Source: Nitrospirota bacterium (lineage in GTDB: Bacteria > Nitrospirota > Nitrospiria > Nitrospirales > Nitrospiraceae). From it: a DNA stretch of 64,000 nucleotides. Of the stretch, positions 13,255 through 52,777 are shown piece by piece. The stretch is taken from positions 96,001-160,000 of the forward strand of contig CAVPGK010000012.1 in NCBI GenBank assembly GCA_963703955.1, in the 5' to 3' direction. The notes under the pieces were generated by a model that ran no database searches, was not told where the DNA came from, and saw nothing but the letters and a program-made list of their open reading frames with translations. The stretch's first letter is position 1. The number at the start of each line of letters is the position of its first letter. A program made the position numbers and the translations under genes.

Positions 13255-13340
13255 CACCCGCCCACCCCAGGCGCGCCAAGACGCGCCCCTTCCCGTACGA
13301 GGCCGCAGCCGTAGAAACCTCGCAGGCGTACCCTGCGGGA
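13255..13340 (+). repeat. CCAAGA-hairpin repeat unit joined to a MITE core fragment
   Basis: cacccgcccaccccaGGCGCGccaagaCGCGCCccttcccgt followed by GAGGCCGCAG-N15-AGGCGTAC, which is shared with the element at 46681. Confidence 0.85.
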
Positions 13341-13396
13341 GCGAAGGATAAGGCGGATAGGTGCACCCGGACGAGAAAACCTTGTCCACATCCTGC

Positions 13397-14113
13397 TTAA
13401 CCGATCTTTCCGGGATAGAGGATGTACAGCATCGTATACGTGACACTGCCGGTTACGAAGAGGACACAATAAACGACCATCGTGAAACGACCCAGTACGC
13501 GGTGCCGTCGTTCACCGTTCGGCCAGATTCGCTGGATCACAATCTCCACCGCAAACACAATCGCGACCAACACCAACAGCCCGAGATAGACCACTAATTT
13601 GCGGGAAGAAAACCCCGCCGTGGCGACGCGTGAAAGAAAGAGCAACAGAACCAGGGCGGTAACTCCTCCGAAGATCGTTCCGATCTTTGCCCAGGACGTC
13701 TGCAAAAGCCCGCTCCGCAATGTCCGCCGCCCTCCGTTGGTCGTCTGCGCGCGGAATCCAAGCACAATCATGTAGACCGCCATCACCAAGCCGACGACGA
13801 CCAGCATAATATGGAACGTCAGGAGCGGAATGAAGACGCGATCGTAGAGCGCCTGCGAGCCACCGAACCCTGCCTTCCCCTCAAATGCCAATACGCCCAA
13901 TTTCCGAAAAAGATAATAGCTGACGAAGAACGCCAGCATCGCTCCCATCCCTCCCAACATCAACCAATGGTGGTTGGTTCCTTGCTGCTTCTTAGCCTGA
14001 ACCCAACCGATTATGAACAGGAAGGTAAACAATGCCGCCATGGTCTGGCTCAGATCCGCTCCAATTGTCGCGTGCGTGCCGAAAAACCCAGGTTGCTTAA
14101 GCCATTCCTCCAT
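13397..14113 (-). CDS. DUF420-family membrane protein
   Basis: HHWLM, FHIML and RHRVLGRFTMVVY...TG..TY motifs typical of DUF420. Confidence 0.8.
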   Translation of the reverse strand: MEEWLKQPGFFGTHATIGADLSQTMAALFTFLFIIGWVQAKKQQGTNHHWLMLGGMGAMLAFFVSYYLFRKLGVLAFEGKAGFGGSQALYDRVFIPLLTFHIMLVVVGLVMAVYMIVLGFRAQTTNGGRRTLRSGLLQTSWAKIGTIFGGVTALVLLLFLSRVATAGFSSRKLVVYLGLLVLVAIVFAVEIVIQRIWPNGERRHRVLGRFTMVVYCVLFVTGSVTYTMLYILYPGKIG

Positions 14114-14128
14114 AAATCGACGATCTCC

Positions 14129-15112
14129 TTAGTCCTGTTTGATCCCTTGAATGACCGCGGTCCGTTCAATTTCAGTGACAGACTGAAATCCGGCCCGAAC
14201 CATCCATTGTGTTGCGTCGGAAACGCGATAGCAGCGGCCCCGCTCCGTGTTCACCAGAATGTGAACGGCGAAGGCCGCTACCCATGCCGGAGCCGTCCCT
14301 GTCTCGTCGAGGAATCGATCTTTGATGATCAACCGCCCCCCCTCTTCAAGATGACCGAATACCTTCCTCACCAGCGCCGCGTTCGCTTCGGGCCCTTGGT
14401 AATGGAGAATGTCGGACATCAGCACGGCCTCGTAGGGCCCTCCCAACGAATCCCGGTTGAAATCTCCGGCGCGTAACTCGATTCTGGATTCGAGGTTCGC
14501 CTCCTTCACCATCCGCTCGGCCATCTTCAGCGTCTGGGGCAAATCAAACACCGTGGCCCGTATGCGGGGATACATGCGACAGAAGGTGATCGCGTTCGTT
14601 GCGGCCCCGCCTCCCAAATCGAGAAGTCGTTGTACTCCGTCCAGCTTCAATCGCTTGGCGAGTTCCGGTCCGCTCTGCTGTCCGATTCGATCCAAGACAG
14701 AGAGGACGCTCGCTCCCAATTCCGGATCGGTTTCGAATACATGGCGATTCACCGGTGAATGTCCGGTCCGAACCGTTTCTTCCAGCTTGCCCCAATTTTG
14801 CCACTCGGCATCATGGAGCAGCAACAGATGCCCGACGTAGTTCGGCGACGTCCTGATCAAATGCATGGTTCCGACCTGCGTATTTTCAAACCGGTCGGTC
14901 TTCTTCCCTAGGACTCTCATGGCCACCAGAGCGTTCATCACGATTCCAAGGATTTCCGCATTGGCTCCGATCCGCTTCGCCACCTCGTCGACAGTGAGGG
15001 CTTTGGTGTCAAGGACTGTAAAGAGATCCAGCTTGACCGCCGTCAGCAGAATCTTGGTTTCCCAGTAGTAGCCAAGCTCGAAAATATCGGCAAGGGAGAG
15101 CTCACGTGGCAC
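14129..15112 (-). CDS. SAM-dependent O-methyltransferase (Methyltransf_2 with dimerisation domain)
   Basis: TAVKLDLF N-terminus, LLDLGGG, VFDLP, AGDF, ILH. Confidence 0.9.
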   Translation of the reverse strand: MPRELSLADIFELGYYWETKILLTAVKLDLFTVLDTKALTVDEVAKRIGANAEILGIVMNALVAMRVLGKKTDRFENTQVGTMHLIRTSPNYVGHLLLLHDAEWQNWGKLEETVRTGHSPVNRHVFETDPELGASVLSVLDRIGQQSGPELAKRLKLDGVQRLLDLGGGAATNAITFCRMYPRIRATVFDLPQTLKMAERMVKEANLESRIELRAGDFNRDSLGGPYEAVLMSDILHYQGPEANAALVRKVFGHLEEGGRLIIKDRFLDETGTAPAWVAAFAVHILVNTERGRCYRVSDATQWMVRAGFQSVTEIERTAVIQGIKQD

Positions 15113-15114
15113 TA

Positions 15115-15190
15115 TTCCACCCGCCCATACCCTTCACCTGCCGTTGCACCCGTCCAATCCCCGGGCACGCCAAGACGTGCCCTTCTCCTT
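15115..15190 (+). repeat. Diverged CCAAGA-hairpin repeat
   Basis: cacccgccc leaders and hairpin GGGCACG-CCAAGA-CGTGCCC (15163-15182). Confidence 0.75.
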
Positions 15191-15402
15191 TCCGCAGTCC
15201 TCAACAGCGTTCAAGGTCAATGAATTTTTGATATTACTCAGTTCAATCTCAGAAACGCAAGAAGGGAAAGGGGTTGTCAAAGCGGATCGGACGCGCGCAG
15301 GTGGAGGAAGTCCGTTACCGGAGGTAGAAAGACAGCAGTTGATCTTCAGTCGGGGAGTTTTCCAAACAGGGAACGAGCGTGAAGCTTTTACAGCGGTCCC
15401 AC

Positions 15403-15444
15403 AAATGAAAAGGGCAACGGCCGGATGCCCGGCCGCTGCCCTTT
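15403..15444 (-). terminator. Probable intrinsic terminator after the 15484 gene
   Basis: Minus strand AAAGGGCAGCGGCCGG-gcat-CCGGCCGTTGCCCTTTT. Confidence 0.7.
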
Positions 15445-15483
15445 GAAGGCTGGCCACGAAGAAGCCTTCGCCGCAGCGAGAAG

Positions 15484-16275
15484 TTACTTCTTTTTGATCT
15501 CGAACTTGGCCTGAGCGCTGCCTCCCTCCGGCACATCCACTTCAGCCTCGACCTTGCCGGCAAATGGATGCCAGGCGACCAGCTTGTGCTTGCCGGCCGG
15601 AATGTCCTTGATTTCGAACGTGCCGTCTTCCTTCACGACTGCATAGTGCGGGTTCGACACCGGGAGGAAGAAGCTTTGCATGAACTCATGTTGGTCGCAC
15701 TGCAACCGGAACATGGAGCCCTGCTTGTCCTTGCGCAGGACCACCGGCTTGTCCAGTTTCGATCCTTTTTCCGCGAGACCGATGTTGAACACGGTGCTGG
15801 AGCTGGGTCCCAGCACTTCAAAGGAGTGGGGGTTGTGCAACACACCCTTCACCGACTTCGGGTCATCCGGATCGTTATCGTGGTTCTCCACATGGAAGTT
15901 TTTCTGCTTGACGACCACACCGGTATAGGGCAGAAATTCACAAAATTCCGCCACCACGTCGGTTCCCTTGTACCCATCCACAAAGGCCTTGTCCTCAACA
16001 TCCGTCACGGCTACCACGGCGGCCTTCAGCGCCCCGTCTTTGCCCACCTCAATCGTCGGCAGGATTCGCTTTTCCCCTCTGATCAGTTCCTTCTTGGGGA
16101 TCTTCGGGCAGAACTTCGGATTGGGGAACTTGGAGAACAGGAATTCCTTCTCCTCCGCCTTGCCGCTAAAGGTCACCTTCCCCGTGACCGTCCCTCCCGC
16201 GAAGGACGCAAGGGGTGCCAGTAGGAACGCCCCCATAACAAGCCCTGATGTGACCAGAAACACTCTCTTCTTCAT
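15484..16275 (-). CDS. Exported protein with a cupredoxin-like type-1 Cu motif inside a carboxypeptidase-regulatory-like beta domain (paralogue 3)
   Basis: Signal peptide MKKRVF; FLP...N.D...LHN...CDQHEFM; C-terminal DGTFEIKDIPAG...AWHP. AAGGAGG RBS before ATG 16275. Confidence 0.8.
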   Translation of the reverse strand: MKKRVFLVTSGLVMGAFLLAPLASFAGGTVTGKVTFSGKAEEKEFLFSKFPNPKFCPKIPKKELIRGEKRILPTIEVGKDGALKAAVVAVTDVEDKAFVDGYKGTDVVAEFCEFLPYTGVVVKQKNFHVENHDNDPDDPKSVKGVLHNPHSFEVLGPSSSTVFNIGLAEKGSKLDKPVVLRKDKQGSMFRLQCDQHEFMQSFFLPVSNPHYAVVKEDGTFEIKDIPAGKHKLVAWHPFAGKVEAEVDVPEGGSAQAKFEIKKK

Positions 16276-16479
16276 GGTACTGCCTCCTTGTGATTGAAAC
16301 GATAGGTCATAATACCTCATGATTTACAGCCCGGACCATCACTCGCGTGATCCAATCCTACGTACTCCGAGCCAGCGTGATTTCGGAGGGAGAGGCGATG
16401 CCATTGAACGTTTCGCGCTCGATGAAAACCCGTTGGTCCGACAGTCCTGGAGGGGCCGTCCTAGAGGTTGAGAATGATC

Positions 16480-16509
16480 CTTATAGCAGTAACCGACAAC
16501 GGGTGTCAA
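16480..16509 (-). promoter_or_regulatory. Possible sigma70 promoter
   Basis: TTGACA, 18 nt, TATAAG with an extended-10 TG. Confidence 0.45.
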
Positions 16510-16530
16510 GGAGAATTCGCCGGCGTCCTA

Positions 16531-17913: not shown

Positions 17914-17981
17914 TCGTGCGGTTCCTCCCCCAGAGGCGGGTAAGCTTCAAGATGAGACAGCGAGGATAAGCTCGGGCATCT

Positions 17982-18920: not shown

Positions 18921-18931
18921 ATCCGTCTCCC

Positions 18932-19864: not shown

Positions 19865-19934
19865 ACATCCTCCGAATGCCTGTAGCCTTGAACGGATCAT
19901 TCACCTATTCCCAATAGTACCCAACGCATCGTGT

Positions 19935-19967: not shown

Positions 19968-19988
19968 GAATCTGCCGACAGCAGGCCG

Positions 19989-22900
19989 TTACCGTGAAGC
20001 GACCGGAACAGCTTGCGACGAGACAGGCGGCTCGGTTTCGGCCTTCTTTACCCCTGCCGCGGCGCCGCTGAGCGGCAACAGACTCTGATCGCCGACCGGC
20101 AACACCCGCAGATAGCCCCACTGTCCCGACTGTGAGTATGGGAGCCGCTGGTTGCTCCAGACATAATCCCCCGGCAGCCGATACGGCCCGCCCGCTGAAC
20201 CGATGAACGCGTCGATCGTCTCGGATCCGGAGAACTCCACGACACTGATCTCATCAGCCCCGCGCATGAACGGCTCGATCGGCCACTCATGCTTCTCGAC
20301 GCTGAACATCTGGTTTTGTTCGTTGTTCGCACCGAACACGTGGATCCGCACCGGATCTCCGGCATGCGTCTCGATGATCGGCGTCACCGGATCCTCCGGC
20401 TTGTCTGCGACACAGGGCTGGAACATCTTGCCCAAAGAGCAGCCCGCCTCCTCCCGGTACTTGTATGGTTCCGACCGGTAGTTGACCCCGGTGAGGCCAG
20501 CGACGTTTTGCACATAGGGCATGAAGCTGGTCCCGATGATGTTGTCCTCATCCTGGAAGAACAGTGAGGCGTCTCGATAATTGACGCGCGTCTCGTTTCC
20601 TGGAATCGTCCGGTCGATGATCACATCGGCCACCCAACTGTTCTTATTGGAAAGATCTGCCCCGGTCTTCGGGTCACGATACTTCGAGCCACGCGGCCCG
20701 ATAACCACGGCTCCGAACAACCCGTTACGCGGATTGGTCATGACGTTCCCCCAATCCCACACAAGGGAGCTAATCTCCCCCAGGAACGGATCGGCATAGT
20801 ACGTGTACGTCCGGCTCTCCCCGGGAGCGATGGTTTGATCGCCGGGGTTGTTGCCCACGTTCGCTCCCAGCGAGTCTTTCGGATCAAACGCCAGGCTGAT
20901 GGCCGAGAACGAAGCACGGCTTTCTTTCATCTTGTTTTTCAGATTGACCTTGATGCAGTCCCCGATGTTCGCGCGAATCGTCAGCGGCATCGGCTGCAAT
21001 CCTTCAGCGACTTTGGAGGCCTCTTCCTCCAACGTGTAGATCTTCGCCTCGGGGTTCGCGATTTGGATCTTCCGCTCGAAGTCCACCTCGATAGCTTCAG
21101 GTGCCTTCTGGTTGAACTTCATGTTCGGGAAGTCCTGCGCCACGACATTGAAGGTCTTGACCGGCGCGCCAGTCGGGCAGACCGGCTGCTTCTCCGGAAT
21201 CTCATTACGATGGGAGTAGCCCGCCGGCAGCTTCTGCAGATCCGGCGCGTCTTTATCCAACACCCGAACGATCCCCCAGGCGCCTTCCGAGAACTTCGAA
21301 GAGCGACCGTTGAAGTGGATGTAGTCACCGGCTTGCAGCCTCGGTCCGCCGGCCTGCGGCACGACGAGGTCATACCGCTCGGCAATGCCGATGTGAATCG
21401 AGTTCTTCCGATTCGGCGTCGCCCGCATACCGTTCCGACAGGAAGGTGTGACCCGACAGCGTCCAGGTCATCGTCTCGTTCATGAGGGTATGGAGCAACC
21501 GAAACACCATCGTGTCCCCAACATAGGCCCGTAACAATGGTGTGTAGGGATCCCCATGGATCTGGCTATTAAAGATTTGCGACACATCCGGATTGACGGC
21601 CAACCGCTCAGCGATCGGTCCGGCCCGGAAGTTCAGTCCGCTCCCCGTCGTATGGGTCCCGCCATTCAGGAACGGCATCGGTGACGAATAGATTTTATCC
21701 GGCATCATGAACGACACGGTCTTCCCGGCTTCCAGAGCCACCTCGACCGGTTGTCCAGGAGGATTGCCCGCTGTGACGATGTTCACCGTATGCGGGACTG
21801 TATCGTGCACCTGGACCATCAGTTCCCGGAAGCTGCCGTTCACACCATGTCCCACCGGCTCCACGGTCCGAATGTCGGCAATAGGACCACTCCGAATTTC
21901 CTTGCCGGTCTTGGGATCGTGATACGTAGATCCAACGGGCTCGGCAAGGAAGGTGCCGAAGCCACCGTGAGGCCAGGTGGTCGCCCCAAAGGCGTGATCG
22001 TGCCAGAACACCGTCCCCACGTCGGCATCCACCCAGAACCGTTGCCGCACGAACTCCACGGTGATGATATCGTTCGCCGGGTGGTCAAACTTCAGCGGCT
22101 TGCGTGAGGGTGATCGTATTGCCCTTGATCTCCTTGACGCGGGCAACCTCGTTCCCGTTCACGTTATCCGCACCGACCAGGATTTCAGTGTTCGCATGGT
22201 ATGGCGCGGCATTCTTGACAGTCACGGTGCTCGCACCTTTCTTGGCCGGCGCAGTGAGCACCGTGTTCATCGGCAACGGAAGCCCCTTCTTGTTCTTTTT
22301 CTCCAGCATCGTGAATGGCCGCACCGACTGCTCATAGGAAAAGCCGCTGATCACGCCGTCCGACGCCTGGTTGTCGAACTGCAGGAAATGCCAGTGCGTG
22401 TTGATCTTGGAGGACTGGAAGTTCGTGTAGTCGTCATCCTCCCATTCGCTAGTCAGCATCCAGTCTATGCAGTCATAAATATTCCCGCGGACGACGAGCG
22501 GATATTTCAGGTCATCGTTCTTGCGAATGGCGGCCTCCTCCTCATGCAGGACATAGATCAAGCCGGTTTGGTCGATCACGGCAGGTTCCTTGCCCTCCGC
22601 CTTGGCGATCTTGATCGGGAGCTTAATGAAGTGAACGTTGAAAGACTTGCGACCGGCGTTTTCCGGACACAGACTCCAGCGCCCCTGCTCGCCAGGCTTG
22701 GCCTGCTCAAGGCTCGGCTCACCATTCTCGTCCCTGGCGATCATATCCAACCATGGCGCGCCGACGTGCCTCGGCGAGAACATCACCCGCTTGCCGAAAT
22801 GCGGCGTCAGGTGCGGCCAGGCCACCTTCCCGGTAGTCGCCTCAAAGAGGATCGGCCGTCGCTGACCAGGGGTTGGCGACTTGTACTTGGGATTGTCGAT

Positions 22901-24860
22901 CGTGCTTTCTTTTTCGGTCATCGCCCGATTGCCGTTCCAAGCCCAGTCCAACACGGTCGCATCATACGACACGATCTGTCCCTTCTCATCATCCTTGTGA
23001 CCAGGCTTCCCTCGGGTGGGTAACTGCATCTCAACCCAATCTTTGATGTTGATCACGGCTGGGTTGGACTTCCAGTTGCTCTTTCCCTTGTCCACGATCT
23101 GAAACGTCTTGCCGAACCAGTCCATGGTCTTACCGACCAACTGGTCGGAACTGACGCCCGCCTTCATGCGGCCCTTGCGGTCCGGCAGTTCTCTGAAGAT
23201 CGGGCATGACATCATTCCGAGAATCCCCGACTTGCAGGGTGTTATACACACGCCAGTAGCCCCACATGCCCGCGACGTAGTGGTGCGCCACGTGGCAGTG
23301 GAACAGGAAGTCGCCGGCCAACTGCTGACACAGGCCTGAACCGCACTCGGTTTCCAGATCCAGCGCTTCCGACGGTCCAATGACTTCCACGTCCACCCGA
23401 TCTGTCTTAGCCCTGATCACCGGATACTTGACCGGGCCGTTCGTGGCCGTCGCCCAGAGGTTCATATCGTCGATGGCCCGCGGGCTTCGCGGCCAACGAA
23501 TCGACCCACCGTGTGGGTGGTGCGAATGAAAGACCTCCGAACCGCCATGCACAAGTCGGTACTTGGCCGGATCGCCCATGTAGGAACGAGGAATCGTCGT
23601 CGGCGCATCGCCGAACGTATAGGAGCTGTAGCCCATCGACTCGTCCTCGAACCCAAAGTACTCATGCTGCACATGCATATTGTTGATGCCGAACGGCTCG
23701 CTGCGGTAGTTCAGCGCACGGCCACCCGGGCGATAGGCATCGGTTAACGGGTCCCGTTGCGGGAGGAATTCCCCCTTCCTATTCACGGGGCGGAAGGCCT
23801 CATCGCCCACCTCATGGTAGATGATGACGAACTCGCGGAAGTCCGGACCGGTTCCATTCTTGATGATTGCTTGCCAACCACTCTTCATTGGAGTCGCATC
23901 ACCAGTACCGAGCGGATCAAGGTACTCCGACCCCTTGGGCTCAACAACAAAGGTGCCGAACAGTCCCATCACGGTGAGCTCGCGGTCATTACTGTAACTG
24001 TGAAACTGACGGCCACCCTCCTGTGCGCTAGGGTGAATATACCATTCAAGATCCTGCGCCTTCCCTTGCGCGACGATCGAATCCGGGTTGGTGGTGGTTG
24101 CAATCTTCCCGGTCGCACTGATGATCATGCTAGAACCGTGGATGTGCAAGCTGACATCCTCGCCGCCTTCCAGCTTGTTCTGAAGCTTGACTTTGACGCA
24201 ATCGCCTTGATTGGCTCGAATGACCAAGGGCTGAATCCACTGGTTCTGCAAGCCATTCATCACGGCACCGGGATCGTACCCCTCTTTTTCACGTGCTGCC
24301 TTGTTCTTGGCCTCTTCTTCTCTCACCCTGTCAAGGTTCTCGGTCAACACATACATGTAGCCGGGATAGTAATCCAGCCACTGATTGAGCGAGATCTCAA
24401 CATTAATTGCGGAGATATCATAGGCTCTGACCGGTGCGCCTGCCGGACATCGACCACCCTGCATCGAAACCGGTTCGTTCCGCGGATCCGACACAAGGAG
24501 CATGTCCTGACCGCCAGCTCCATACTGGTGCATCATCGACATGTTGTTGTAGAGCCCGTCCGTGTGTTGCATCTGCGCATCCTGCCCCATCTGAAGCATG
24601 ATCCGCTCATGTTGCCGTTCCACCATCGCTGCCCGTTCCGGCCGCCCTTCCATGGTGTCTTCGACAACGGTTTGTCCTTTGAGCTTTTCTGCCCACGTCT
24701 GGGCCTGGTCGGGCATGGCAACCTGCTGCGCCGAGACGTGTCCTTCATGCGAGGATGAAGGTTCGGCTGAGGCAACAAGCGGCAAGCACACCAGCACGCC
24801 GCCGGCTACGACGCCGGTGACACGCCTGAGGAAGTGAGAGGGAACAGTGGTGTAATGCAT
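19989..24860 (-). CDS. Very large (~1620 aa) exported multicopper oxidase, MnxG-like; split by three +1 frameshifts (~23192, ~22102, ~21414)
   Basis: Motifs LHIHG, HSHHPHG, FHCHVAHHYVAGMWG, THWHF and FWHDH. Four ORF-track pieces join seamlessly after removing one base at each junction. AAGGAGG RBS at ATG 24860. Confidence 0.85.
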
Positions 24861-25027
24861 GACCGGCCTCCTTAACATAAGATTAGGTCTGGATGAACCG
24901 ACTGTAGTGAGTCTTCGTCTTATTTCGTCTTAGGTGGCGGTAAGCTTTTTACGATAGCTCCCGATTCCTTACTCTCTAGCACGCGAACGTCCTGCCGAGA
25001 GGCTCATTCGCCCCTCCGGGAGGGCTC

Positions 25028-33269: not shown

Positions 33270-33610
33270 ATTTCACCCGCCCACCCCAGGCGCGCCAAGA
33301 CGCGCCCTTTCCCGATTTCACCCGCCCACCCCAGGCGCGCCAAGACGCGCCCTTTCCCGAGTACACCCGCCCACCCCAGGCGTCATTTCACCCACCCACC
33401 CCCACGCTGGCCAAGACCAGCTCCTTCCCGAAGGACGCGCTCCTCCCCGTTGCTCACCCCACTCCCCTGGCACCCTTTCACCCGCCCGCCCCGAGCTGGC
33501 CAAAGACCAACTCCTTGCCGTTTGCACCCGCCCTCCCCAGGCGTCATTTCACCCCCCCACCCCCACGCCTGCCAAGACAGGCTCTTTGCCCGAAGGACGC
33601 GCCCCCGCCC
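33270..33610 (+). repeat. Mosaic tandem array of CCAAGA-hairpin repeats (array 1)
   Basis: Two identical 45-nt units (33270-33314, 33315-33359), then variant or partial units with GCTGG/CCAGC and GCCTG/CAGGC stems. Confidence 0.9.
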
Positions 33611-33664
33611 GAGGAATATTTGCATAAAATTCCAAACCATCCTAAAATCCCCGCCCAATAGACG

Positions 33665-34408: not shown

Positions 34409-34585
34409 TCGACCTGCCCCTCAGCGTTTTCTCTCAGTCTGCAGATGTATCGGACCACGTTTGCTTGCATAACCCCACGCAAATCCATTGCTTTGTCCTA
34501 CTTCACCCCATGCTTGGTCGCAACGCGCCGCTTCAGCTATACTTATCAGAAGAAAGCCTTTGACTTTGCCTGCTTAGGAGATCTC

Positions 34586-36016
34586 ATGGCGAAAACAAAG
34601 TCGTCCGATTCTGCCCACACCCGGGTGAAAGTCTTCGACTCGACGAATGAAATCAGTCAAGCTATTGAGAAGTTACGCAGCAAGATCGTGCAGGTTGAAG
34701 AACTCAAGAAAGATGGTCTTCCCTATCGCGATGCGTTGAAGGTGACCACGGAGTACCAAATCCGGGATACGATCCGAGAGGTCTTCGGAGCTCACTCGCC
34801 TGAATTTCACGAACATCAACACCATCGGATCAGAGTGAACAGCAAGGCTGGTGTCGATGACACCATTACGCTCCTACAAAATCTCGTTTTGGCCCTCGAA
34901 GAAAAAAGACTTCATTTGCTGGGGTTCCGGCCTCGCCCCGCTGCAGTAGTAACCCCTGAAGACAATGGGCATGATACCCCCGCCCCGGACGCGCCACCCC
35001 AACCCCAACCGCCACAACAGACGGCTCAAACCATACCAGCTCCAGCGGCCCCCGTGCAGACGGCTGAGGTTGAGGCTCCAGCCCCCGCCCCCCCTTCACC
35101 CGCGCCTCTCGTAGCTCAACACAATCCGTCCCCTCCCGCACCACGCGAAGCAGAGCGAGCAGCGATTCCCCATCCATCGCATTCGCACCATACGCGCAAG
35201 GGAAGATCGTCGGGGGAATCTCGTATGAAAGAGGCTGCACCACCTCCCCCTGTAGTCTCACAGCCAGTGGTTGCCGTTGCTCCTCCGATCGCTACGGTTT
35301 CCGCGGGGATTGCTCCCCAGCCCGTCCTTGCTACACCTCCGCCCCAACCTCAGGTAGTCCCCCCCATTCCAGTGAGTGCTCCTCCACCCGTGGTCGCCCC
35401 GCCTCCGTCCCCAGAGCCCGTCGCTCAGCAAGCTACGACCGATGCGATCGACGTGAGTGACCAGACGCCTGTTCAGCAACACACAGAGATGAACGTTGAG
35501 GTGACAATGCCCCCGACTACAGCGCCGCCGTCTGAGCACCCCAGTCCCAGACCTGACATGGACACCGTGACCCTCATTCAAAGAATTTGCACGCGTTTTC
35601 ATAGTGTGGCGCGGCAACTTCGACAACGAAGTGATGATCGGTCAACACTCGAAGTCGAGGACGAGGTTGACGTGCAGGACGTGTTGCGCGCCGTCCTGTG
35701 CGCTCAGTTTGATGATATCCACACAGAGACTTGGAATCCCGCCTATGCCAACGGGATGCCCCGGGCCGACCTCGTTTTGAGGCAGGATGGGATTGTCATC
35801 GTGGCGAAGAAGACCAAGCAGGGAGTAGGAGCCAAGACCCTGACCGAGCAGCTTGGCGTGGACATCCAGCGCTACATGAACCACTCCCTCTGTAAGACCC
35901 TTGTGTGTTTCATCTACGACCCGGAGGGACGCATCGGCAATCCGGACGCTCTCGAAGCCAGTCTCGTTCGTCAACGGAGCGCACGCCGGATTGAAGTCAT
36001 CATTTCACCCAGGTAG
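34586..36016 (+). CDS. Protein with a Pro-rich linker and a C-terminal PD-(D/E)XK REase-like (DpnII-MboI-like) domain
   Basis: AGGAG RBS; EVDVQDVL...FDDI...RADLVL...IVIVAKK...EQL..DIQRY...CKTLVCFIYDPEGRIGNP. Confidence 0.75.
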   Translation: MAKTKSSDSAHTRVKVFDSTNEISQAIEKLRSKIVQVEELKKDGLPYRDALKVTTEYQIRDTIREVFGAHSPEFHEHQHHRIRVNSKAGVDDTITLLQNLVLALEEKRLHLLGFRPRPAAVVTPEDNGHDTPAPDAPPQPQPPQQTAQTIPAPAAPVQTAEVEAPAPAPPSPAPLVAQHNPSPPAPREAERAAIPHPSHSHHTRKGRSSGESRMKEAAPPPPVVSQPVVAVAPPIATVSAGIAPQPVLATPPPQPQVVPPIPVSAPPPVVAPPPSPEPVAQQATTDAIDVSDQTPVQQHTEMNVEVTMPPTTAPPSEHPSPRPDMDTVTLIQRICTRFHSVARQLRQRSDDRSTLEVEDEVDVQDVLRAVLCAQFDDIHTETWNPAYANGMPRADLVLRQDGIVIVAKKTKQGVGAKTLTEQLGVDIQRYMNHSLCKTLVCFIYDPEGRIGNPDALEASLVRQRSARRIEVIISPR

Positions 36017-37692: not shown

Positions 37693-38690
37693 CTAACTGA
37701 GTGGGCGAACGCGAAATGGTTCGAAAAACGGCTGGCCCTTCATTCCGGGTCGATACGCCCGTTTTGCCGCCGCTTGGGCCTGCTCACAACTCGCGCGCAC
37801 TTGAGCGTCCGTCTTCCTGTTCGCCGACACGGCATTTTGGTAGAGTTTGGCAACCATGCACTGTACGCCCAAGAATGTCGTCTGGCGGGTGCTTGAGGGA
37901 TCAAGACTGAACACTTCCTGAACCGGGTCGGCAGGTTTGGCACCTTCGCACTTGCAGTAGCGACAGGACATCAGCTGAGGGATGACCTGGGCGCTGAAAA
38001 TGACATGTTGGACTTGCCACGGATCTCCGCTTTCCGCATAGGCCGACGGATCAGCGGCAATGGGAATTGCTCGAAGGAGAAGCCGCGCCACGGCGATATG
38101 CTCATCGTGCCCGCTCACACCGCAATGGTCGTCCATCGCTACCACCACATCGGGCTTTCGTTGGCGCAGGAGGGTAACAATATATCCGACCGGATCTCCT
38201 TCTGTGCTCCATTTGGCAATCACGTCGTCGGACGTCGCCTTAGCCGTCCAGTCGCGGGAGGAGCAGTGGCCGGCATAGAGTCAAGAGCGGTCAGAGAATG
38301 AGGCCCGTTGATGAAAGGGCCGATGTCGTGACCGTCTGCTTGAAGCAGAGACGCAGACTTCTCAAACAACTCAGCACGGGCGGCTCCAATTTCGGATCCC
38401 CGACGCAATCCGCCCCATAGCTTGTCGCTGTTCTCCCCTTTGGTGAGGGTGGCCATGAAGAGCGATCCCGACACTTCTTTACTACGGGCGAGCAAACCGC
38501 TTGCAGACGTTTCATCATCAGGATGAGCGGCCAGCCAAAGCACCCGTTGTGAACTGGCTAATATCTCCAAAACAGTTGTAGGGGTAGAGGGCTGTGTTTC
38601 CCCCTCCCCCGCATAGACGGTCGCCGTCACGATCAACAGGGTAGTGAAGAGTCCGGTCGTTTTCTTGAGGCGATCACTGCATATCAACAT
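37693..38690 (-). CDS. PIG-L/LmbE-family deacetylase, exported, frameshifted near 38250
   Basis: AHPDDE, TKGE and GHDEH motifs split across two ORFs. Confidence 0.8.
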
Positions 38691-39083: not shown

Positions 39084-40523
39084 TTATGCAGACCCCTTTA
39101 CCGACTTGCCCGCGCTAAGATACCGGTCAATGCCTGCAGCCGCTTTTCGGCCTTCGGATATCGCCCACACGATCAGGGAGGCCCCTCGCTTCGTATCACC
39201 CGCGGCAAAGACGCCGTCGACGTTTGTCATGAAGTTGATGTCCACGGCTACGCTCCCGCGGGCATCGTACTTCACTCCTAATCCGTCCAACAGCCCGTTC
39301 TTCACCGGACCGGTGAAGCCCATGGCGAGCAGGACCAGGTCCACCTCCATGTCGAAATCGCGTGTTCGGGATCGGCGTGAACTGCGCCGTTCTCGAACGC
39401 GACCCGGTGCGCGTGCAGTTTGGTGACGTGACCGTTGCGGCCGGTAAACTTGGTCGTCGAGACGCTCCACTGGCGATCGCACCCTTCTTCGTGCGCGTGA
39501 GACGTGCGAAGCTGCATCGGCCAGAGAGGCCATGGCGTGGAAGAGGCTCGCTCGGGTGGAGGTTCCGGGAGGAGTTCAAATTGGTGGACTTCGCTGCAGC
39601 CTTGCCGATGCGTCGTTCCCAGACAGTCCGAGCCGGTGTCGCCGCCGCCGATGATCACGACCCGCTTGCCCTTGGCCGTGATCGGTTCGTCGGTCAAGGA
39701 GTCGCCCGGCATTGCGCTTGTTCTGCTGCGTGAGATACTCCATCGCCGGATGAATGCCCTTGAGTTCCCGTCCGGGGACCGGCAGTTCGCGCGCCTGCTC
39801 GGCGCCCATGGCCAGGCAGACGGCGTCGTATTGGCGCCGCAGGGTCTTCGCCGTCGACGTCCACGCCGACATGAACATTCGTTTTGAACTCGACCCCCTC
39901 GGCCCTCATCTGCTCCAAGCCGCCGGTCGACGACCCATTTCTCCATCTTGAAATCCGGGATCCCATAACGCAACAAGGCCACCGATCCGATCGGCTTTTT
40001 CAAAGCACCGTCACGCGGTGTCCGGCGCGGATAGCTGCTGGGCCGCGGCCAGACCGGCCGGGCCTGACCCGACGACGGCCACGGACTTCCCGGATTGCGA
40101 GACCGGTAGGATCGGCTCCACCCATCCCTCGTCGAACCCCTTGTCGATGATGTTCCACTCGATGACCCGAATGGAGACCGGCGCCTCATTGATCCCGAGC
40201 ACGCAGGCCGATTCGCACGGCGCCGGACACAGACGGCCGGTGAACTCCGGAAAGTTGTTAGTCGTGTGCAAGGCTTTCAACGCATCTTTCCAGCGACCGC
40301 GGTGCACGAGGTCGTTCCACTCCGGAATCAGATTGACCACCGGACAGCCGTTGTGGCTCTGGCAAAACGGAACCCCGCAATCCATACAGCGCGCGCCCTG
40401 CGCCTTGAGCGCCTCTTCCGGCATCGGCTCGTAGAATTCCTTCCAGTCCTGGATCCGAAGCTCAACCGGCCGGCGCTTGGGGCCCTCACGGGGATATTTC
40501 ATGAAGCCCTTCGGATCAGCCAT
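39084..40523 (-). CDS. gltD: Glutamate synthase small subunit, multiple frameshifts
   Basis: [55 protein letters not shown]. Confidence 0.93.
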
Positions 40524-43500
40524 GGGCCACCATATCCTTCCGGGCCCGTCCCTTGGCCACCGCGGCTTTGCTCTCAGCCAGCACCCGCTTGTAATCGATC
40601 GGCATGACCTTCACGAATTTCGGCAGCATTGTCTTCCAGTGATCGAGCACTGTCTTCGCCTTGCGACTCCCCGTATATTGGAGATGAGACTCGATCAGTT
40701 CCGCAAGAGCGTTCTTGTCCTTCGGCAGTGGAGACCTTTTCCAGTTCGACCATCCCCAGGTTGCAGCGTTGTTCGAACTTGCCGTCCTCGTTGAAAACAA
40801 ACGCGATGCCGCCTGACATCCCGGCCGCGAAATTGCGCCCGGTCTTGCCGAGGACGACGACCACGACTCCGCCCGTCATGTATTCGCAGCCGTGATCGCC
40901 GGTGCCTTCGATGACCGCGCGCACGCCCGCTGTTGCGAACCGCGAACCGTTCGCCTGCCATGCCGTAGAAGTAGGCCTCACCTTGCGTCGCACCGTACAG
41001 TGAGGTGTTGCCGATCAGAATGGTGTCCTCGGGGACTGAATGTGGAGCCCTTCGGCGGGTACCACGATGATCCTTCCGCCGGAGAGCCCCTTGCCCAGGT
41101 AGTCGTTGGACTCTCCTTCCAGGGTCAGCGTGACGCCTCTGGCGAGAAACGCGCCGAACGACTGACCTGCGGATCCGGTGAACTTGATGTGATCGTATCC
41201 GACGGGAGCCCCTCGAGCCCATACCGCTCTGGCAATATGACTGGACAGGACTGTCCCCACTGGTGCGGTTGATATTGCGGATCGGTAGATCCAGCCGCCA
41301 CCGGCTTTGGCCTCGGTCAAGGGCCGATCGCGCAGAGTTCGACAAGCTTATAATCCAGAGCCTCGTGCCAGACCGTGGTCCTGCTTCTCGACGCAGTGCG
41401 TGGCGACCTCGGGGCCGACGTTCGGCTGTGCAGGAGCGGAGACAGATCCAGTCCCTTCGCCTTCCAGTGATCGACGGCCTTCTGCGCCTTGAGTTTGTCG
41501 ACACGCCCGATCATCTCGTCGAGTTTACGGAAGCCTAGTCGTGGCCATCAGCTCGCGCACTTCTTCGGCGACAAAAAAGAAATAGTTGACGACGTGCTCC
41601 GGCTGGCCGGTGAACTTCTTTCGCGAGGACAGGGTCCTGCGTGGCGATGCCGACCGGGCAGGTGTTCAGATGGCATTTGCGCATCATGATGCAGCCTTCA
41701 ACGATCAGCGGCGCGGTCGAAAAGCCGAATTCCTCGGCGCCGAGGAGCGCGGCGATGACCACGTCGCGGCCGGTCTTCATCTGCCCGTCGGTCTCGACGC
41801 GGATGCGCCCGCGCAGATTATTCAGGACCAGGGTCTGCTGCGTTTCGGCCAAGTCCCAACTCCCACGGAATGCCGGCATACTTGATGGAGGAGAGCGGAG
41901 AAGCGCCGGTCCCGCCGGAGTCGCCGCTGATCAGAATCTTGTCGGCATGGGCTTTGGCCACGCCGGCGGCCACCGTCCCGACGCCGACTTCGGCCACGAG
42001 CTTCACCGAGATGTCCGCCTCGGGGTTCGCGTTCTTCAGGTCAAAGATCAGCTGGGCCAGGTCTTCGATCGAATAGATGTCGTGATGAGGCGGCGGTGAG
42101 ATGAGCTGAACGCCGGGAGTCGAATACCGGAGTCGGGCGATGGTCTCGTCCACCTTGTGGCCGGGCAGTTGTCCGCCCTCGCCCGGCTTGGCGCCCTGGG
42201 CCATCTTGATCTGGAGTTCCCTCGCGTTGACCAGGTAATGAGTCGTGACGCCGAAGCGGGCCGAGGCGACCTGCTTGATCGCGCTGTTCTTGGAATCGCC
42301 GTTGGGCAGGGGAATGAAGCGCTCCGGGTCCTCGCCGCCTTCGCCCGTGTTGCTTTTGCCGCCGATCCGGTTCATCGCGATCGCCAGCGTTTCGTGGGCC
42401 TCTTTGCTGATGCGCGCCGAACGACATCGCCCCGGTGGTGAACCGCTTGACGATCTCGGTGCCGGCTCGACCTCGTCGAGCGGAATCGGTGTTCGGCGAA
42501 CCGTGAAGCTCGAGCAGTCCCGCGCAGATTCGGACGCGACGCTTGCTCTCGTCGTTGACCAATGCCGCAAATTCCTTGTAGGTCTTCGGGTCGTTCGCTT
42601 GGGCGGCGTGCTGGAGCTTCGAAGATCGTCTCCGGGTTCCAGTTGTGGTGCTCGCCCTGGACGCGGTAATGGAATTCCCCGCCGAAGTCGAGCTGCCGGA
42701 TCGGAGCCGGATCGATAGGCCATCGCGTGACGGCGCAGGGTCTCCTCGCCGATCTCGTCGATCCCGATCCCCTCGATGCGGGACGGCGTGCCGGTGAAGT
42801 AGCGGTCGATCAGATCATGGTTCAGCCCGATCGCCTCGAAGATCTGCGCGCCGCAGTAGGACTGCACCGTGGAGATGCCCATCTTCGAAAAGATCTTCAG
42901 CAGACCCTTGTTGATGGCCTTGATGAACTTCGACCTCGGCCGTGGCGGCATCGACGCCTTCGGGCAGGTATCCTTCTCGCTCCATGTCGATCAGCGTCTC
43001 GAACACCAGATACGGATTGATGGTTCCGGCGCCGTAGCCGATCAAGGCGGCGAAATGATGGACATCGCGTGGCTCCCCGGTTTCGACGATCAGTCCCACT
43101 TCCGTGCGCGTGCACTCACGGATGAGATGGTGGTGTACGGCCGAGATGCCGAGCAGGCTCGGAATCGGCGCCCATTCTTCATTGACGCCTCGGTCGCTGA
43201 GGATCAGGAACTTATAGCCGTCCTTGATGGCCTCGGAGGCCTGCCGGCAGAGTTCATCGACGGCCGCCTTCAACCCGTCCGGTCCTTCGGCCACGCGGAA
43301 CAGCATCCGCAGGGTCTTGCTCTTGAAATGCGGATCGGCGATCACGCGGATTTTTTCGAGATCCGCATTGGTCAGGATCGGCTGCTGCACCTTGATCCGG
43401 CGGCAGGATTCCGGCGCTCTCTTCCATGACGTTCGGCTTCGGACCGATGTTCGTCACAAGCGACATCACCAATTGCTCGCGGATCGGATCGATCGGCGGG

Positions 43501-45083
43501 TTGGTGACCTGCGCGAAGAGTTGCTTGAAGTACTTGAACAGGAGCTGAGGCCGATCGGATAGCACCGCGAGCGGAGTATCGGTCCCCATGGACGAGACCG
43601 GTTCCTCGCCTGTCACGACCATCGGGGTGACGACCATCTTCAGCTCTTCGACCGTGTAGCCGAACGCTTGCTGGCGCTGGCGGATCGTCGGATGATCCGG
43701 CTGCGGTACGTTGAGCGGTTCCGGCAGCTCATCAAGGGACATGCCATACTGCCTGACCCACGCTCCGTAGGGCTTCTGCTTGACGATTTCGGCCTTGATC
43801 TCCTCGTCATCGATGATCCGGCCCTGGACCGTGTCCACAAGGAACATGCGCCCGGGTTGGAGGCGGCCTTTTTGGCGGATGCTTTGAACATCAGCCGGCA
43901 GCACCCCGGCCTCGGACGCAAGCACCACGAGATCGTCGGTCGTCACCTGATATCGACAGGGACGTAGGCCGTTCCGATCGAGCGTCGCACCGATGAGCTT
44001 GCCGTCGGTAAAACAGACGGCCGCCGGACCATCCCACGGCTCCATCATCGCCGCGTGGTACTGGTAGAATCCGCGCCGTTGCAAGTCCATCTGCGGATTG
44101 GCGACCCAAGGCTCTGGAATCAACATCATCATGGCGTGCGGCAGCGAACGGCCACCAAGTACGAGAAACTCGAGCGCATTATCGAGGCAGGCCGAATCGC
44201 TCTGCCGGTCATAGACGATCGGAAAGAGCTTCGGGATATCGTCACCGAACAGGTCGGACTGCAGACGGCCCTGCCGCGCCCGCATCCAGTTGACGTTGCC
44301 CTTCAGCGTATTAATCTCGCCGTTGTGGCAGATGTACCGGTACGGATGCGCCAGCGGCCAGGTGGGAAAGGTGTTGGTGCTGAACCGCGAATGGACGAGG
44401 GCCAGCGCGCTGGTCACACTGGATTCTTTGAGATCCAGATAGTACGCCGACATCTGGCTCGGCAGCAGCAATCCCTTGTAGACGATGGTCTGGCCGGACA
44501 GGCTGGGAATGTAGAAATGCTCGCGCCCTTCGATGGCCGATTCGCGGACGGCCCGCTCGGCGCGCTTGCGGATTACGTAGAGCTTTCTTTCGAACTGGTC
44601 TTCATTCAGGATATCGCGGGCGATGAAGAGTTGCCGAATGACCGGTTCCGTCCGGCGAGCCTGTACACCGATCGCGTCGCTGTTGACCGGCACGTCCCGC
44701 CATCCGAGAAACCGGGCCCGTTCTTCGGCAACCACTTTTTCCAGGAGCGTCTCGCACGATTTTCGCTGAGCCGTGTCCCTGGGCAGGAACGCCATGCCGA
44801 CGCCGTACTCTCCCGCATTTGGCAATTTGACGCGCACACTCGCCGCCGCGCGCTTGAGAAAGTCATGTGGAACCTGAAAGAGAATACCGGCACCGTCCCC
44901 TGTACAGGGATCGCATCCTTGGGCGCCGCGATGGAACAGATTCTCCAACACCTGGAGACCTTGCTGGACGATGCGGTGGGACTTTCGGCCTTGAATATTG
45001 ACCACAAAGCCGATGCCGCAGTTGTCCTTTTCAAATTGAGGGTCGTAGAGTCCCTGTTTCGGAGGAAGGCCCGGAACGTCCAT
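40516..45083 (-). CDS. gltB: Glutamate synthase large subunit, many frameshifts in the 3' half
   Basis: [59 protein letters not shown]. Confidence 0.95.
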
Positions 45084-45164
45084 CTCGCACCTGTTCAACT
45101 AGTTGTGAAACCGACGGTTTCGGCCGAACGAAATCGGAGAGGAAGACCGCGTCGTTGAACGGTC

Positions 45165-45235: not shown

Positions 45236-45630
45236 TCACTCACCCACCTCGCGCCTCTGTAGCCGCGAAGTCACGGCTGAGCGGCGTTCAAATAGCGCCC
45301 TGTTCACTATTCTCACCCGCCGCGCCGGGCGATTAATGTCACCCGCTATTTCACCCTCCCAATCCCCATCCGCGCCGAGACGCAGCTTCTTCCCATGGCC
45401 CGAGCTGGCCAAGACCAGCTCTCTTGCCAATTTCACCCACCCGGCCCCAAGCGTCATTCCCCCACCCACCCCACGCCTGCCAAGACAGGCTCTTTGACCG
45501 TGGGACGCGCTCCTTCCCGAAGGACGCGCCCTTTTCTTTTTTCACCCGCCCACCCCGGGCGCCATTCTCACCCACCCACCCCGAGCTGGCCAAGACCAGC
45601 TCTCTTCCCGTGGCACGCGCCCTTTGCCCG
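45236..45630 (+). repeat. Mosaic array of CCAAGA-hairpin repeats (array 2)
   Basis: Repeated tcaccc(g/a)ccc leaders; hairpins at 45372 (CCGAGA loop), 45402, 45475 and 45583. Confidence 0.88.
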
Positions 45631-46676: not shown

Positions 46677-46680
46677 CTTC

Positions 46681-46805
46681 GCAGGCCGCTGAAAATGGTC
46701 CCCAACTTCGTTCTCAGTCGCGCGTCCCCCTCAACGTACGTGCCCTGTACGCCTCGGGGTCCACGCTCTCTGCGGCCTCGCTGCGAATCATTTTGAGCGG
46801 CGTGC
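46681..46805. mobile_element. 125-bp MITE-like element with terminal inverted repeats
   Basis: Left end gcaggccgctgaaaatggt vs reverse complement of the right end gcacgccgctcaaaatgat (16/19 match); no ORF. Confidence 0.7.
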
Positions 46806-46850
46806 CAAGGGATAGCCATCCGATTTGTTTCTCCAACTCCATGGGGCATC

Positions 46851-48194: not shown

Positions 48195-48218
48195 CGAGAA
48201 GGGGTGAGGAGTAGCGCC

Positions 48219-49616: not shown

Positions 49617-49687
49617 GAATGTGCCTGCCGGGGGCGTTCTCAGTGCGTGCGAGATACGAGAACTCCTCCGCTGCCCATTCTTTCCGG

Positions 49688-49938
49688 CTAGTATTGCTGC
49701 CTACTCGTGCGATGCTGCCGGCATTCCTCTGGCGTCAATTGCCGAGCCGCTGCTTGGCTAATTCGAGAAGCTCGTCAAGAGACCCGCACAGTTCACACCG
49801 AAACACCCGCGCCGTCCGATCGTCACTCGCCGTCACCACCCAGCGCCCATCCGGACTGAATGCCGCCCGCCTCACGCCGCCGGTGTGGCCGCGCAGCACC
49901 GCGACCTCCTTCCCCGTGGCCGCCTCTCACACTCGTGC
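49688..49938 (-). pseudogene. Remnant of the C-terminus of a WD40-repeat protein
   Basis: [45 protein letters not shown], then a frameshifted RQLTPEECRQ tail. Confidence 0.8.
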
Positions 49939-50011
49939 GCATTATAGGCTCTTGACTGGGTTGATTTTGGCCTTGGCCATGTTAGTAAGATAGGATAGCT
50001 GGGGTGGAAGC

Positions 50012-52777
50012 ATGGCCATTGATCCTGTGTGCGGCATGACGGTGGACGAATCACGGGCGCCGGCGAAAGCGGAGCACGCAGGCAAGACCTACTACTTTTG
50101 CGCGCCTGGCTGTAAGCGGACCTTTGAAGCGAATCCTGAACAGGTTCTGCGTCAAGGTCCCAAGGGCATGGCGGCCACGCCGGTGCAGATGGTTAATCTC
50201 ACCCGCCCACCCCAGGCGCGCCAAGACGCGCCCCTTCCCGTGACACCATCTCGGCAAAAACCGGCTGTGAGTCCGGCGGCTCCCGCCGTCAAGACTGGTC
50301 CGCCTTCGACCTCCCTCACGATCCCGATCGAAGGCATGTCCTGCGCCTCGTGCGTGGCGAGGATCGAGCAAGGACTACGCGCGATTCCAGGTGTCGTGAA
50401 TGCATCCGTGAATCTGGCGACCGAGAAGGCCGCTGTCACCTATCAGCCCGAGGTCATCAAGCCGGCGGCGATCCGCGAGGCAATCCGCTCGCTCGGCTAT
50501 ACGCCGGGAGCCGAACCTGAGGCGCCGCTCTCCGGCGTCTCTGTGGCTTCCATGACGATCCCGATCGAAGGCATGTCGTGCGCGTCCTGCGTGGCGAAGC
50601 TTGAACAGGGACTGCGCGCCATCCCGGGCGTCATCGGGGCATCCGTAAATCTGGCCACGGAGAAGGCTACGGTGAACTATCAGCCAGGTCTCACCAATCC
50701 GGCCGCGATCCACGACACGATCCGCTCACTCGGTTACACACCGTTGGCCGAAGCGTTCACCTCGACAGTCTTGACCGAACCGCGAGAAGGCCACGTCCGC
50801 GCTCTCATCCGAAACTTTTGGATCGCCGCTGCCCTTACCGTGCCGATCATGATCCTGGGCATGGGCGAGCATCTGGGACTGACTATTCCCCGATCGACCT
50901 CCTACTGGCTGCAATTGATTCTAGCGACCCCCGTACAATTTTGGGCCGGCTGGCGATTTTACAAGGGCGCCTTCACCGTCGCGCGGCACGGTTCCACCGA
51001 TATGAACACGCTCATCGCGGTAGGAACATCGGCAGCATACGGGTACAGCGTCGCTGCCACGATCGCCCCACAATGGTTCACGGCCGGAGGGGTGACTCCC
51101 GCGGTGTACTTCGACACTTCCGCGGCCATCATTACCCTGATCTTGTTCGGGCGCGTGATGGAAACGCGCGCAAAAGGACGCGCGTCCGAAGCGATCCGCA
51201 AGCTGGCCGGCCTTCAGCCGAAAGAAGCGCGGGTCATCCGGAACGGGCGGGAGATGGATATTCCCATTGCGGACGTCGTGGCGGGGGACCTGGTCGTGGT
51301 GCGGCCCGGTGAGAAGATCCCGGTGGACGGGATCGTGCGCCACGGCGCCTCGGCCGTGGATGAGTCGATGGTGACCGGTGAAAGCGTGCCGATCGACAAG
51401 AAACCAGGCGATGCCGTCATCGGCGCCACACTCAACCGCACCGGCAGCGTCAGAGTCGAAGCCACAGGGGTTGGTCGCGACAGCGCGCTGGCCCGCATCA
51501 TGAAGATCGTGGAAGAGGCGCAGGCCGCGAAGCCGCCGCTGGCTCGATTGGCGGATCGAATCGCGTCGTATTTTGTTCCGGCCGTCATCGCCGTCGCGGG
51601 TCTGACCTTCCTCCTCTGGCTTCTGTTTGGGCCGGAGCCGGCCCTGACCCATGCCGTGATCAATTTTGTCGCGGTGCTGATCATCGCCTGTCCCTGCGCC
51701 TTGGGCCTGGCCACCCCGACGTCCATCATGGTCGGCATCGGAAAAGGAGCCGAGCATGGCATCCTCATTCGAAACGGGATCGCTTTGGAGCGCGCACACC
51801 AACTGACCACGGTTGTCCTGGATAAAACCGGGACGCTGACCCGCGGCCGGATCTCCGTGCGCTCGGTGGTCCCACTCGCGCCGGGCTGGACGTCGGAACG
51901 AGTTGTGGCGGTTGCGGCGGCAGTCGAGCGTGGATCGGAACATCCGGTCGGGGCAGCGATCGTTCGGCACGCGCAAGAAGAGTTGCGACTCGCACTCGAC
52001 GACGCAACCGACTTTCGCGCCGTGCCGGGCCACGGCGTTCGCGCCACGGTCGGCAGGCTTTCGGTGTCCCTCGGTAATCTGCGCTTGATGGAGACCGATG
52101 GGGTCCCGGTCGGTCCCGACGCCGGGGCGACCGCCGAGAAGCTGGCAGGAGAGGGGCTGACTCCGATGTATATGGCCGTTCGAGAGGCCGGTGAGGAGAT
52201 CCCTCGACTCGTCGGCGTGGTTGCCGTAGCTGATACGGTCAAGGATCATTCTCGCGAAGCGGTCGAGTCCTTACACCGGCTCGGCCTCGAGGTGGTGATG
52301 CTGACCGGTGATAATCCTCGCACGGCCAAGGCGATTGCAGATGAGGTCCATATCGACCGCGTCCTGGCCGAGGTTCTTCCCGAACAGAAGGCGCGTGAGA
52401 TCGCACGGCTGCAGGAGCAGGGTAAGGTCGTGGCTATGGTCGGCGACGGCATCAATGACGCCCCGGCTCTGGCGCAGGCCGATATCGGGATCGCCATCGG
52501 AACGGGCGCCGATGTCGCGATGGAGGCCGCCGATGTGACGTTGATCAGCGGAGACCTCCGTGGCGTCGCCACCGCGATCGCGCTCTCGCGCGAGACGACG
52601 AAGAATATCAAACAGAACTTGTTTGCCGCCTTCATCTATAATATTCTTCTGATCCCAGCGGCCGCTCTCGGATTCCTCAATCCGATTTGGGCCGCGGCGG
52701 CGATGGCTCTCTCTTCGGTATCCGTGGTCGGGAACGCGCTCCGCTTGCGCAGATTCAAACCACCGGCCCATGCCTAG
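50012..52777 (+). CDS. copA: Cu(I)-exporting P1B-1 ATPase with a YHS domain and two HMA domains
   Basis: DPVCGM...YYFC, GMSCASC twice, TGES, CPCALG, DKTGT, YN, MALSS. Confidence 0.95.
50200..50241 (+). repeat. CCAAGA-hairpin repeat translated in frame within copA
   Basis: 42/42 identical to 13255-13296. Confidence 0.92.

Follow-up and report, generated by a model that had tools for sequence, protein, structure and literature searches.

Introduction

Small dispersed repeats (SDRs) were reportedly described by Elhai et al. in 2008, with SDR1–8 of Nostoc punctiforme showing compensatory stem changes and nesting in themselves and in minitransposons, and with the mobilizer not known; movement through RNA by means of a reverse transcriptase (RT) is said to have been proposed earlier for these cyanobacterial repeats. 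To our knowledge, how elements shorter than 50 nucleotides (nt) move without inverted repeats, target duplication or an enzyme of their own has been unsettled since. Here we analyze a hairpin repeat found in 64,000 nt of a Nitrospirota bacterium (GenBank assembly GCA_963703955.1, contig CAVPGK010000012.1, positions 96,001–160,000 of the forward strand; hereafter the window), and conclude with high confidence that it is a non-coding mobile unit of ~45 nt.

By analogy, the closest kind appears to be the cyanobacterial SDRs and, with regard to coding insertions, the Rickettsia palindromic elements (RPEs). As with SDR1–8, the unit is very short, non-coding and dispersed, shows compensatory stem changes, and nests within its own copies and within minitransposons while leaving no visible target duplication, as is reported for SDRs. 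It differs from them in length (45 nt, against a reported 21–27 nt), in its C/G-tract leader, asymmetric tail and loose target, in its hosts (Nitrospirales rather than Nostocaceae), and in its many in-frame copies in conserved genes; the likeness is one of described features. SDR5 is reported to have inserted precisely as a repeat module in HIP1 (PMC4390886, PMC5861425), and the cyanobacterial SDR paper is also cited in PMC3116915.

RPEs, as presented in part of PMC2229807, are stem-loops of 105–146 bp with terminal inverted repeats that lie in frame in conserved genes. The present unit likewise inserts in frame in conserved protein genes and adds a peptide, but it is 45 nt long, has no inverted ends and grows within genes by nesting (90, 135, ~190 nt). 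With repetitive extragenic palindromic (REP) elements, REPINs and the REP-associated tyrosine transposases (RAYT, TnpA-REP), judged by what portions of PMC6006769 and PMC3479197 set out, it shares a short hairpin, many copies, arrays and a probable single-strand substrate. In contrast, it has a conserved loop, forms no inverted doublets as a rule, and frequently enters coding sequence instead of being largely extragenic; with no GT(A/G)G foot, no flanked RAYT gene and no REPtron, it was not classed as a REP. Like bacterial miniature inverted-repeat transposable elements (MITEs), the unit is non-autonomous and dispersed, and it is often carried in one, the type A MITE of this genome. However, it also inserts outside that MITE, and it was rejected as a MITE itself, its ends not being complementary and no target duplication having been seen, whereas the host type A repeat does have inverted ends. 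From the non-autonomous ends of IS200/IS605 elements it differs by having one hairpin rather than two subterminal ones, and no fixed target tetranucleotide. New measurements made here concern the 45-nt size step in eight genes, the evidence on strand, the occurrence of the unit across the order and a search for the enzyme, which was negative.

Results

A sequence-only reading of the window had noticed 12 hairpins on the plus strand (13270 to 50215), all of which are present: ten with the loop CCAAGA, one with CCGAGA (45375) and one with CCAAAGA (33500). What it had overlooked is that the hairpin belongs to a mobile unit of fixed length, one that enters coding sequence, other repeats and itself. 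On the C-rich strand, the unit of ~45 nt has its hairpin in the middle and begins with four variable T-rich bases, followed by a 14-nt C-tract leader with variable one-base spacers, a 7-nt arm, a 6-nt loop, a second arm of 7 nt and a pyrimidine tail that closes with CCC(G/A), the stem being 6–7 bp long. Its tandem period in the window is exactly 45 nt, and only two of ten end bases are complementary, i.e. there is no terminal inverted repeat. A weight-matrix scan collected 112 units in 87 clusters from the whole genome (contigs C8 and C20 hold one of these clusters in duplicate), and the reversed-genome control returned none.

The loop is conserved, as had been claimed, though not as a near-invariant CCAAGA: it reads CC(A/G)AGA, with position 3 free to be A or G (68 A, 34 G and 3 T in 105 distinct units of this genome) and the remaining five positions conserved in 95–102 of the 105. 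Within a perfect stem of at least 5 bp, CCAAGA was the top-ranked hexamer (46 of 2419 genome occurrences vs. ~2.4 expected) and CCGAGA the second (24 of 2565), while a leader-anchored search found CC(A/G)AGA in 46 of 66 well-paired hairpins. The four stems named in the earlier reading were all recovered; perfect pairing throughout was not, the CCGAGA and CCAAAGA copies keeping only three perfect loop-adjacent pairs. A C-rich leader does precede most hairpins, the one at 45402 having no C-tract leader.

In this genome the closing stem pair is nearly invariant, and the second and third pairs occur in ten forms, all perfectly paired. In 81 units chosen for diversity, from the window plus 167 foreign units, five of six pairs change on both sides, giving 86 double-change cells vs. 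21 in shuffles (0 of 500 shuffles as high) and far lower values in slid-alignment controls; as the rows are related, these figures are descriptive and not a probability. Stem covariation and loop conservation thus agree with the earlier proposal of a constraint on a single-stranded structure with a sequence-specific loop. A loop-to-leader pseudoknot was rejected on inspection, for lack of a covarying partner.

No described Rfam family explains the repeat: the window gave no match at gathering score, and the array at 33.1–33.8 kb reached at best 19 bits vs. a cut-off of 37.5. No description of the 45-nt repeat was found in the literature searched, with ISfinder and the RepRanger (PMC12306157) supplements lying outside that search. 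RepRanger names N. moscoviensis in one table only, and its main text contains neither loop word (PMC12306157).

The outermost stem pair indicates which strand folds. On the C-rich strand it is A·C in 41 and G·T in 2 of the 105 units; since A·C there corresponds to a G·T/G·U wobble on the opposite strand, folding appears to take place in the G-rich strand and probably not in the C-rich strand, on which the repeat had first been read. Of 105 units from this genome, 67 have four CCC tracts (GGG on the G-rich strand), as do 108 of 167 foreign ones, and the unit has a G4Hunter-type score of 1.29. With G-quadruplexes enabled, ViennaRNA kept the hairpin only and predicted no quadruplex over it.

Comparison of filled and empty orthologues revealed new insertions of a unit with a fixed length of 42–45 nt in conserved genes. 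By hexamer-model calls, 16 of the 87 clusters lie in open reading frames (ORFs), some of them doubtful or at gene ends, and orthologues confirmed in-gene units for eight genes. A kbl-like gene has gained 45 nt net in frame compared with 11 empty orthologues (11 of 18 loci matched the anchors), a short-chain dehydrogenase 42 nt net in frame vs. two orthologues (2 of 5 loci), an alpha/beta hydrolase 90 nt, equal to one nested composite (2 × 45), vs. three (3 of 5), a carboxyltransferase 135 nt (3 × 45) in frame vs. two (2 of 3), and a gene for an aminotransferase V 51 nt in frame vs. eight (8 of 8). A metallo-beta-lactamase-fold protein has an in-frame gain of 126 nt vs. seven empty orthologues (nine loci, one unmatched); its orthologue in genome G302 carries a single 42-nt layer, and our gene has more layers right after the loop of that unit. 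The corresponding segment of glmU encodes 86 aa, vs. 22–32 aa in 26 of 29 loci, a gain of ~190 nt. Overall, insert sizes cluster on multiples of 42–45 nt. An Lhr site was left out of the count, as it lies in a variable linker. The hydrolase orthologue of G303 holds an independent in-frame composite at a different site.

The glmU gene (L216, G000:C22:6009-7802) contains about four in-frame units that encode ~64 extra Gly/Arg-rich residues, in a loop after the GYGR motif, and it has more extra sequence near residues 70–100.

The eighth gene lies in the window. It encodes a copA-type heavy-metal P-ATPase (50012–52777, plus strand; YHS, two HMA, E1-E2 and HAD domains), and a plus-strand unit at 50196–50240 sits in frame in the linker between YHS and HMA, where it adds a proline-rich peptide of 14 codons net. 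The copy at 50215 is therefore not extragenic, as the sequence-only reading had it. The insertion is absent from 12 other genomes and its filled form is carried by contigs of sequencing run X2; one contig of run X5 (depth 4.3) has five other letters in place of the 47 letters 50194–50240, a net difference of 42 nt, but it aligned at 82% likeness, so this empty contig may come from another species.

No target duplication was visible at the kbl, dehydrogenase, hydrolase or copA junctions, where the empty alleles are distant enough for old short duplications to have eroded. Junction contexts differ between the genes, with no fixed target tetranucleotide.

Besides genes, the unit enters the loops of its own copies and of two other repeat families, the type A MITE and a second host repeat, type B, which holds the unit in its loop. 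Both hosts were found filled and empty, with a length difference of ~41–50 nt. The type A MITE hosts units at both ends and in the middle, and an IS5-type element (DUF772 plus DDE_Tnp_1) present twice in the genome has a left end that matches the terminal repeat of the MITE; this element likely mobilizes the MITE, in which the unit spreads passively. In many other Nitrospira genomes most sampled copies lie at type A MITE ends and probably travel with the MITE. At either of these ends the unit is oriented inward, away from the terminal repeat, implying that polarity is set by the target. A window example is the plus-strand unit at 13251–13295, located between two minus-strand genes in the left end of a decayed type A MITE (13234–13335, ends approximate, plus strand) whose terminal repeat is like that of the IS5-type element.

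The IS5-type element encodes 366 aa and is found at G000:C6:156140-157455 and on C15 near 162050. Other modules of ~70–90 nt occur inside the type A MITE. A remnant of this MITE without a unit lies at 46688–46805 of the window; in runs X1 and X5, contigs align to either flank but do not extend over 46753–46838. In a type B repeat at G000:C1:17123-17226, located at the 3′ end of a thiS-like gene, two inverted units together make a long and almost perfect palindrome.

Self-nesting is most evident in the two plus-strand arrays of the window (33270–33612 and 45237–45630), built of tandem units and of composites whose outer unit has its loop interrupted by an inner unit. The first array opens with two head-to-tail units exactly 45 nt apart (33270–33359), followed by a composite (33360–33449) whose inner unit, at 33385–33430, has the GCTGG stem, a degenerate unit with a 7-nt loop (33475–33520), and a second composite (33521–33612) with an inner unit of the GCCTG stem at 33546–33591. 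The second begins with a decayed outer unit that has a module of ~40 nt (module D) in its loop (45237–45300, ends approximate), occupying the same loop site as the inner units do; next come the CCGAGA-loop unit and a leaderless GCTGG hairpin at 45402–45421 (together 45348–45428), and two more composites (45430–45630) with inner units at 45455–45499 and 45565–45609. Outside the arrays, a partial leader precedes a plus-strand unit with the GGGCACG stem (15114–15189).

Module D, which in the window spans 45255–45300, also lies inside a unit loop at C2:1436, C6:2537, C17:248294, C18:31056 and C23:109232. A loop common to the unit and module D was considered and dropped, as D folds differently.

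A covariance model detected the unit in 33 of 37 genomes of the bacterium's own family and in all 21 of the sister family (Nitrospirales), in nine of 37 genomes of a third family (six of them weak) and in none of five of a fourth. Within one family, copy number ranged from 0 to >60 per genome, the highest counts being given as at least 60. A strict pattern found none in 249 genomes of the phylum outside the first two families, and in a scan of species genomes all 80 among the matches listed belonged to Nitrospirota or unassigned bacteria. The plasmids and phages searched gave no unit match. One viral contig carries two units; on this contig (L031) they lie at 3001–3032 and 5490–5522 of a phage tail-gene region, at the start of the tape-measure gene and between head-tail genes.

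Between co-directional genes, the G-rich strand is the sense strand at 45 of 53 sites here, 35 of 48 in foreign genomes and 28 of 35 metagenome loci (108 of 136 pooled), and free and self-nested clusters alone still show an orientation bias of 25:4. The G-rich strand is on the skew-positive strand in 61 of 87 clusters. Replication-strand bias was rejected as the cause: next to lagging-strand genes the G-rich strand remains sense in eight of ten cases, which makes transcription the better explanation of the polarity. In this genome, the 45:8 ratio between genes contrasts with 5:5 within genes (p = 0.025); the foreign in-gene ratios were 2:2 and 8:2, a lean toward the G-rich strand that includes some doubtful ORFs. 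Whether orientation is set solely by selection against C-rich untranslated RNA is undecided, the in-gene contrast here speaking for it and the foreign in-gene lean against it; Rho is present in the genome. Insertion bias and selection are not separable as the source of polarity.

Several neighboring genes of the window have features of their own. Just downstream of the 33.3-kb array, a plus-strand gene (34445–36016) encodes a 523-aa protein with a C-terminal DpnII/MboI-type restriction domain. The minus-strand gene for the glutamate synthase large subunit (40011–45098) is split over at least four ORFs in different frames, and those for a multicopper oxidase (19989–24878), a PIG-L protein (37693–38690) and asmA (52863–54970) also look split, by assembly indels or decay.

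Discussion

Taken together, we lean toward a ~45-nt mobile unit whose G-rich strand is moved in single-stranded form by a strand-transfer enzyme acting in trans, most likely an HUH-like one. In such a scheme, the enzyme would recognize the hairpin together with its YCTYGG-type loop and the G-tracts, and would join the G-rich strand flush, without inverted ends or target duplication, into exposed single strands such as hairpin tips or a transcribed region. Stem and loop would stay conserved if only intact copies move, and later selection would retain only frame-preserving copies in genes. Among the specific routes, the HUH-like one through single-stranded DNA ranks first, albeit tentatively, as it fits a unit with fixed polarity, a hairpin of this size and no duplication at its target.

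The same route is hard to reconcile with a conserved loop, a loose target and the failure to find its gene, and the observations that weigh against it deserve detail. What known Y1 enzymes recognize, according to PMC3479197, is a 5′ tetranucleotide along with the base of the stem, not the loop. Here the targets are loosely defined in sequence and the junctions differ by a few bases, unlike in clean Y1 transposition. The junctions are moreover not base-exact, as the empty alleles come from other genera or from one low-depth contig. For stem pairs 1–6, the strand asymmetry that would mark the G-rich strand as the folded one (29 vs. 18) is not significant. Empty type B repeats have an orientation bias of their own (20:1) and empty type A right ends the opposite one (15:3), so that inheritance or selection may account for part of the unit's polarity. 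In favor of the HUH-like route, 120 of 200 family genomes contain Y1 genes; none, however, was found in our genome (82% complete) or in several unit-rich, near-complete ones, e.g. G177 and G065. Among 78 Y1/RAYT-like loci examined in relatives, part of more than 300 matches, two had a unit within ~1.5 kb, on one side only and both inside a MITE. None of the 28 best-scoring loci (L285–L312) had a unit, and no flanked Y1 gene was seen in five unit-rich relatives or in 68 further loci scanned from 200 family genomes. Nor did any unit lie beside 54 RT, IS110, TnpB and Ku loci or beside 30 IS5-type loci. From 157 foreign loci we gathered 299 unit neighbors, of which 102 had no homologue here; scanning 88 of these and one IS110 gene against Pfam yielded three transposases of three families, none recurrent.

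One IS5-type fragment, one IS110 and one Mutator-type gene adjoin units without recurring, and clustering the neighbors in 80 genome loci returned housekeeping genes only. IS91-type (Y2) enzymes have the nick motif CTTG/CTCG; PF04986 (Y2) had no match in our genome, in a search whose positive control was also silent and which did not extend to relatives. Two identical 1189-bp IS110-family copies (L200 and L203, on G000:C10 and C26) have AT-rich ends and no link to a unit. As for the REP/RAYT system that the sequence-only reading had put forward, it finds no support in the survey of Y1 genes or in the unit itself, where the lack of a GTAG foot had been observed at the outset: of 106 units, none has a GT(A/G)G foot on the C-rich strand and two have one on the G-rich strand.

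An RNA route, in which the G-rich strand would be cut from transcripts and reverse-transcribed into DNA by a group II intron-type or other RT, seems unlikely, despite several features in its favor. The G-rich strand is sense in most co-directional gaps (108/136) and has a ragged 3′ end, the outer stem pair fits G·U, and RT genes are present in 39 of 101 genomes of the order, including a broken one in our own. However, RT presence does not track copy number (medians of 18 vs. 11 units, p = 0.23), no unit lies near any RT locus, and in-gene orientation is balanced here (5:5), though foreign in-gene cases lean toward the G-rich strand.

Less probable still is host repair without a dedicated enzyme, whereby Ku end joining or polymerase template switching would place a stall-prone hairpin with its G-tract into breaks, and template switching within the quasi-palindrome would ‘repair’ the stems. 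The loose targets, junction variation, preference for hairpin tips and four CCC tracts in 67/105 units are all consistent with this explanation, as is the presence of Ku in seven of eight genomes with at least 60 units vs. six of 51 others in the order sample. The Ku link, however, weakens to p = 0.09 after collapsing one genus and dropping our own genome, and was not repeated in further genomes (Ku-positive G304 and G317 have 11 units and 1 unit, respectively, and Ku-negative G303 has 51); most unit-bearing genomes are without Ku. In addition, repair alone leaves the fixed 45-nt length and the conserved loop unexplained, and the quadruplex-enabled fold kept only the hairpin. The Ku gene of our genome (L541, G000:C17:226097-227769) is followed by a probable MerR-like gene, with no LigD recognized beside it and a probable recombinase fragment nearby, and the region looks like an accessory island.

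Finally, it is highly improbable that the repeat is primarily a host regulatory motif, be it a terminator, a stability element or an RNA hairpin bound by protein, or else a classical REP whose RAYT went undetected, and that its dispersal is secondary: conservation across the order (reaching 100% over 42 nt between families with copA genes ~75% alike), the strong orientation to transcription and the presence of Rho, by which a C-rich transcript could be counter-selected, would suit a motif, but copies lie in unrelated genes of every function at sites not common to orthologues, occur in reading frames in both orientations and nested in each other, and vary from 0 to >60 within a family, and the foot and Y1 tests failed for a REP.

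Returning to the preferred strand-transfer reading, a bolder version of it would be an order-wide, still active 45-nt element with an undescribed single-strand insertion machinery that reads the hairpin loop and G-tracts, possibly as a quadruplex-duplex hybrid, and needs neither inverted repeats nor target duplication nor a transposase linked to it, repeatedly building loops of 14–64 residues in conserved enzymes such as GlmU and CopA; in this full form we consider it doubtful.

With its defined ends, covarying stem, conserved loop, tracts, strand polarity and filled and empty coding sites, the family makes the movement of tiny elements testable. If the enzyme is small and target-tolerant, it could possibly serve as a tool for scarless short inserts. 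For genome annotation the unit is a pitfall that produces false long ORFs and odd termini, and for the nitrifiers that carry it, a steady source of in-frame peptide insertions in their enzymes.

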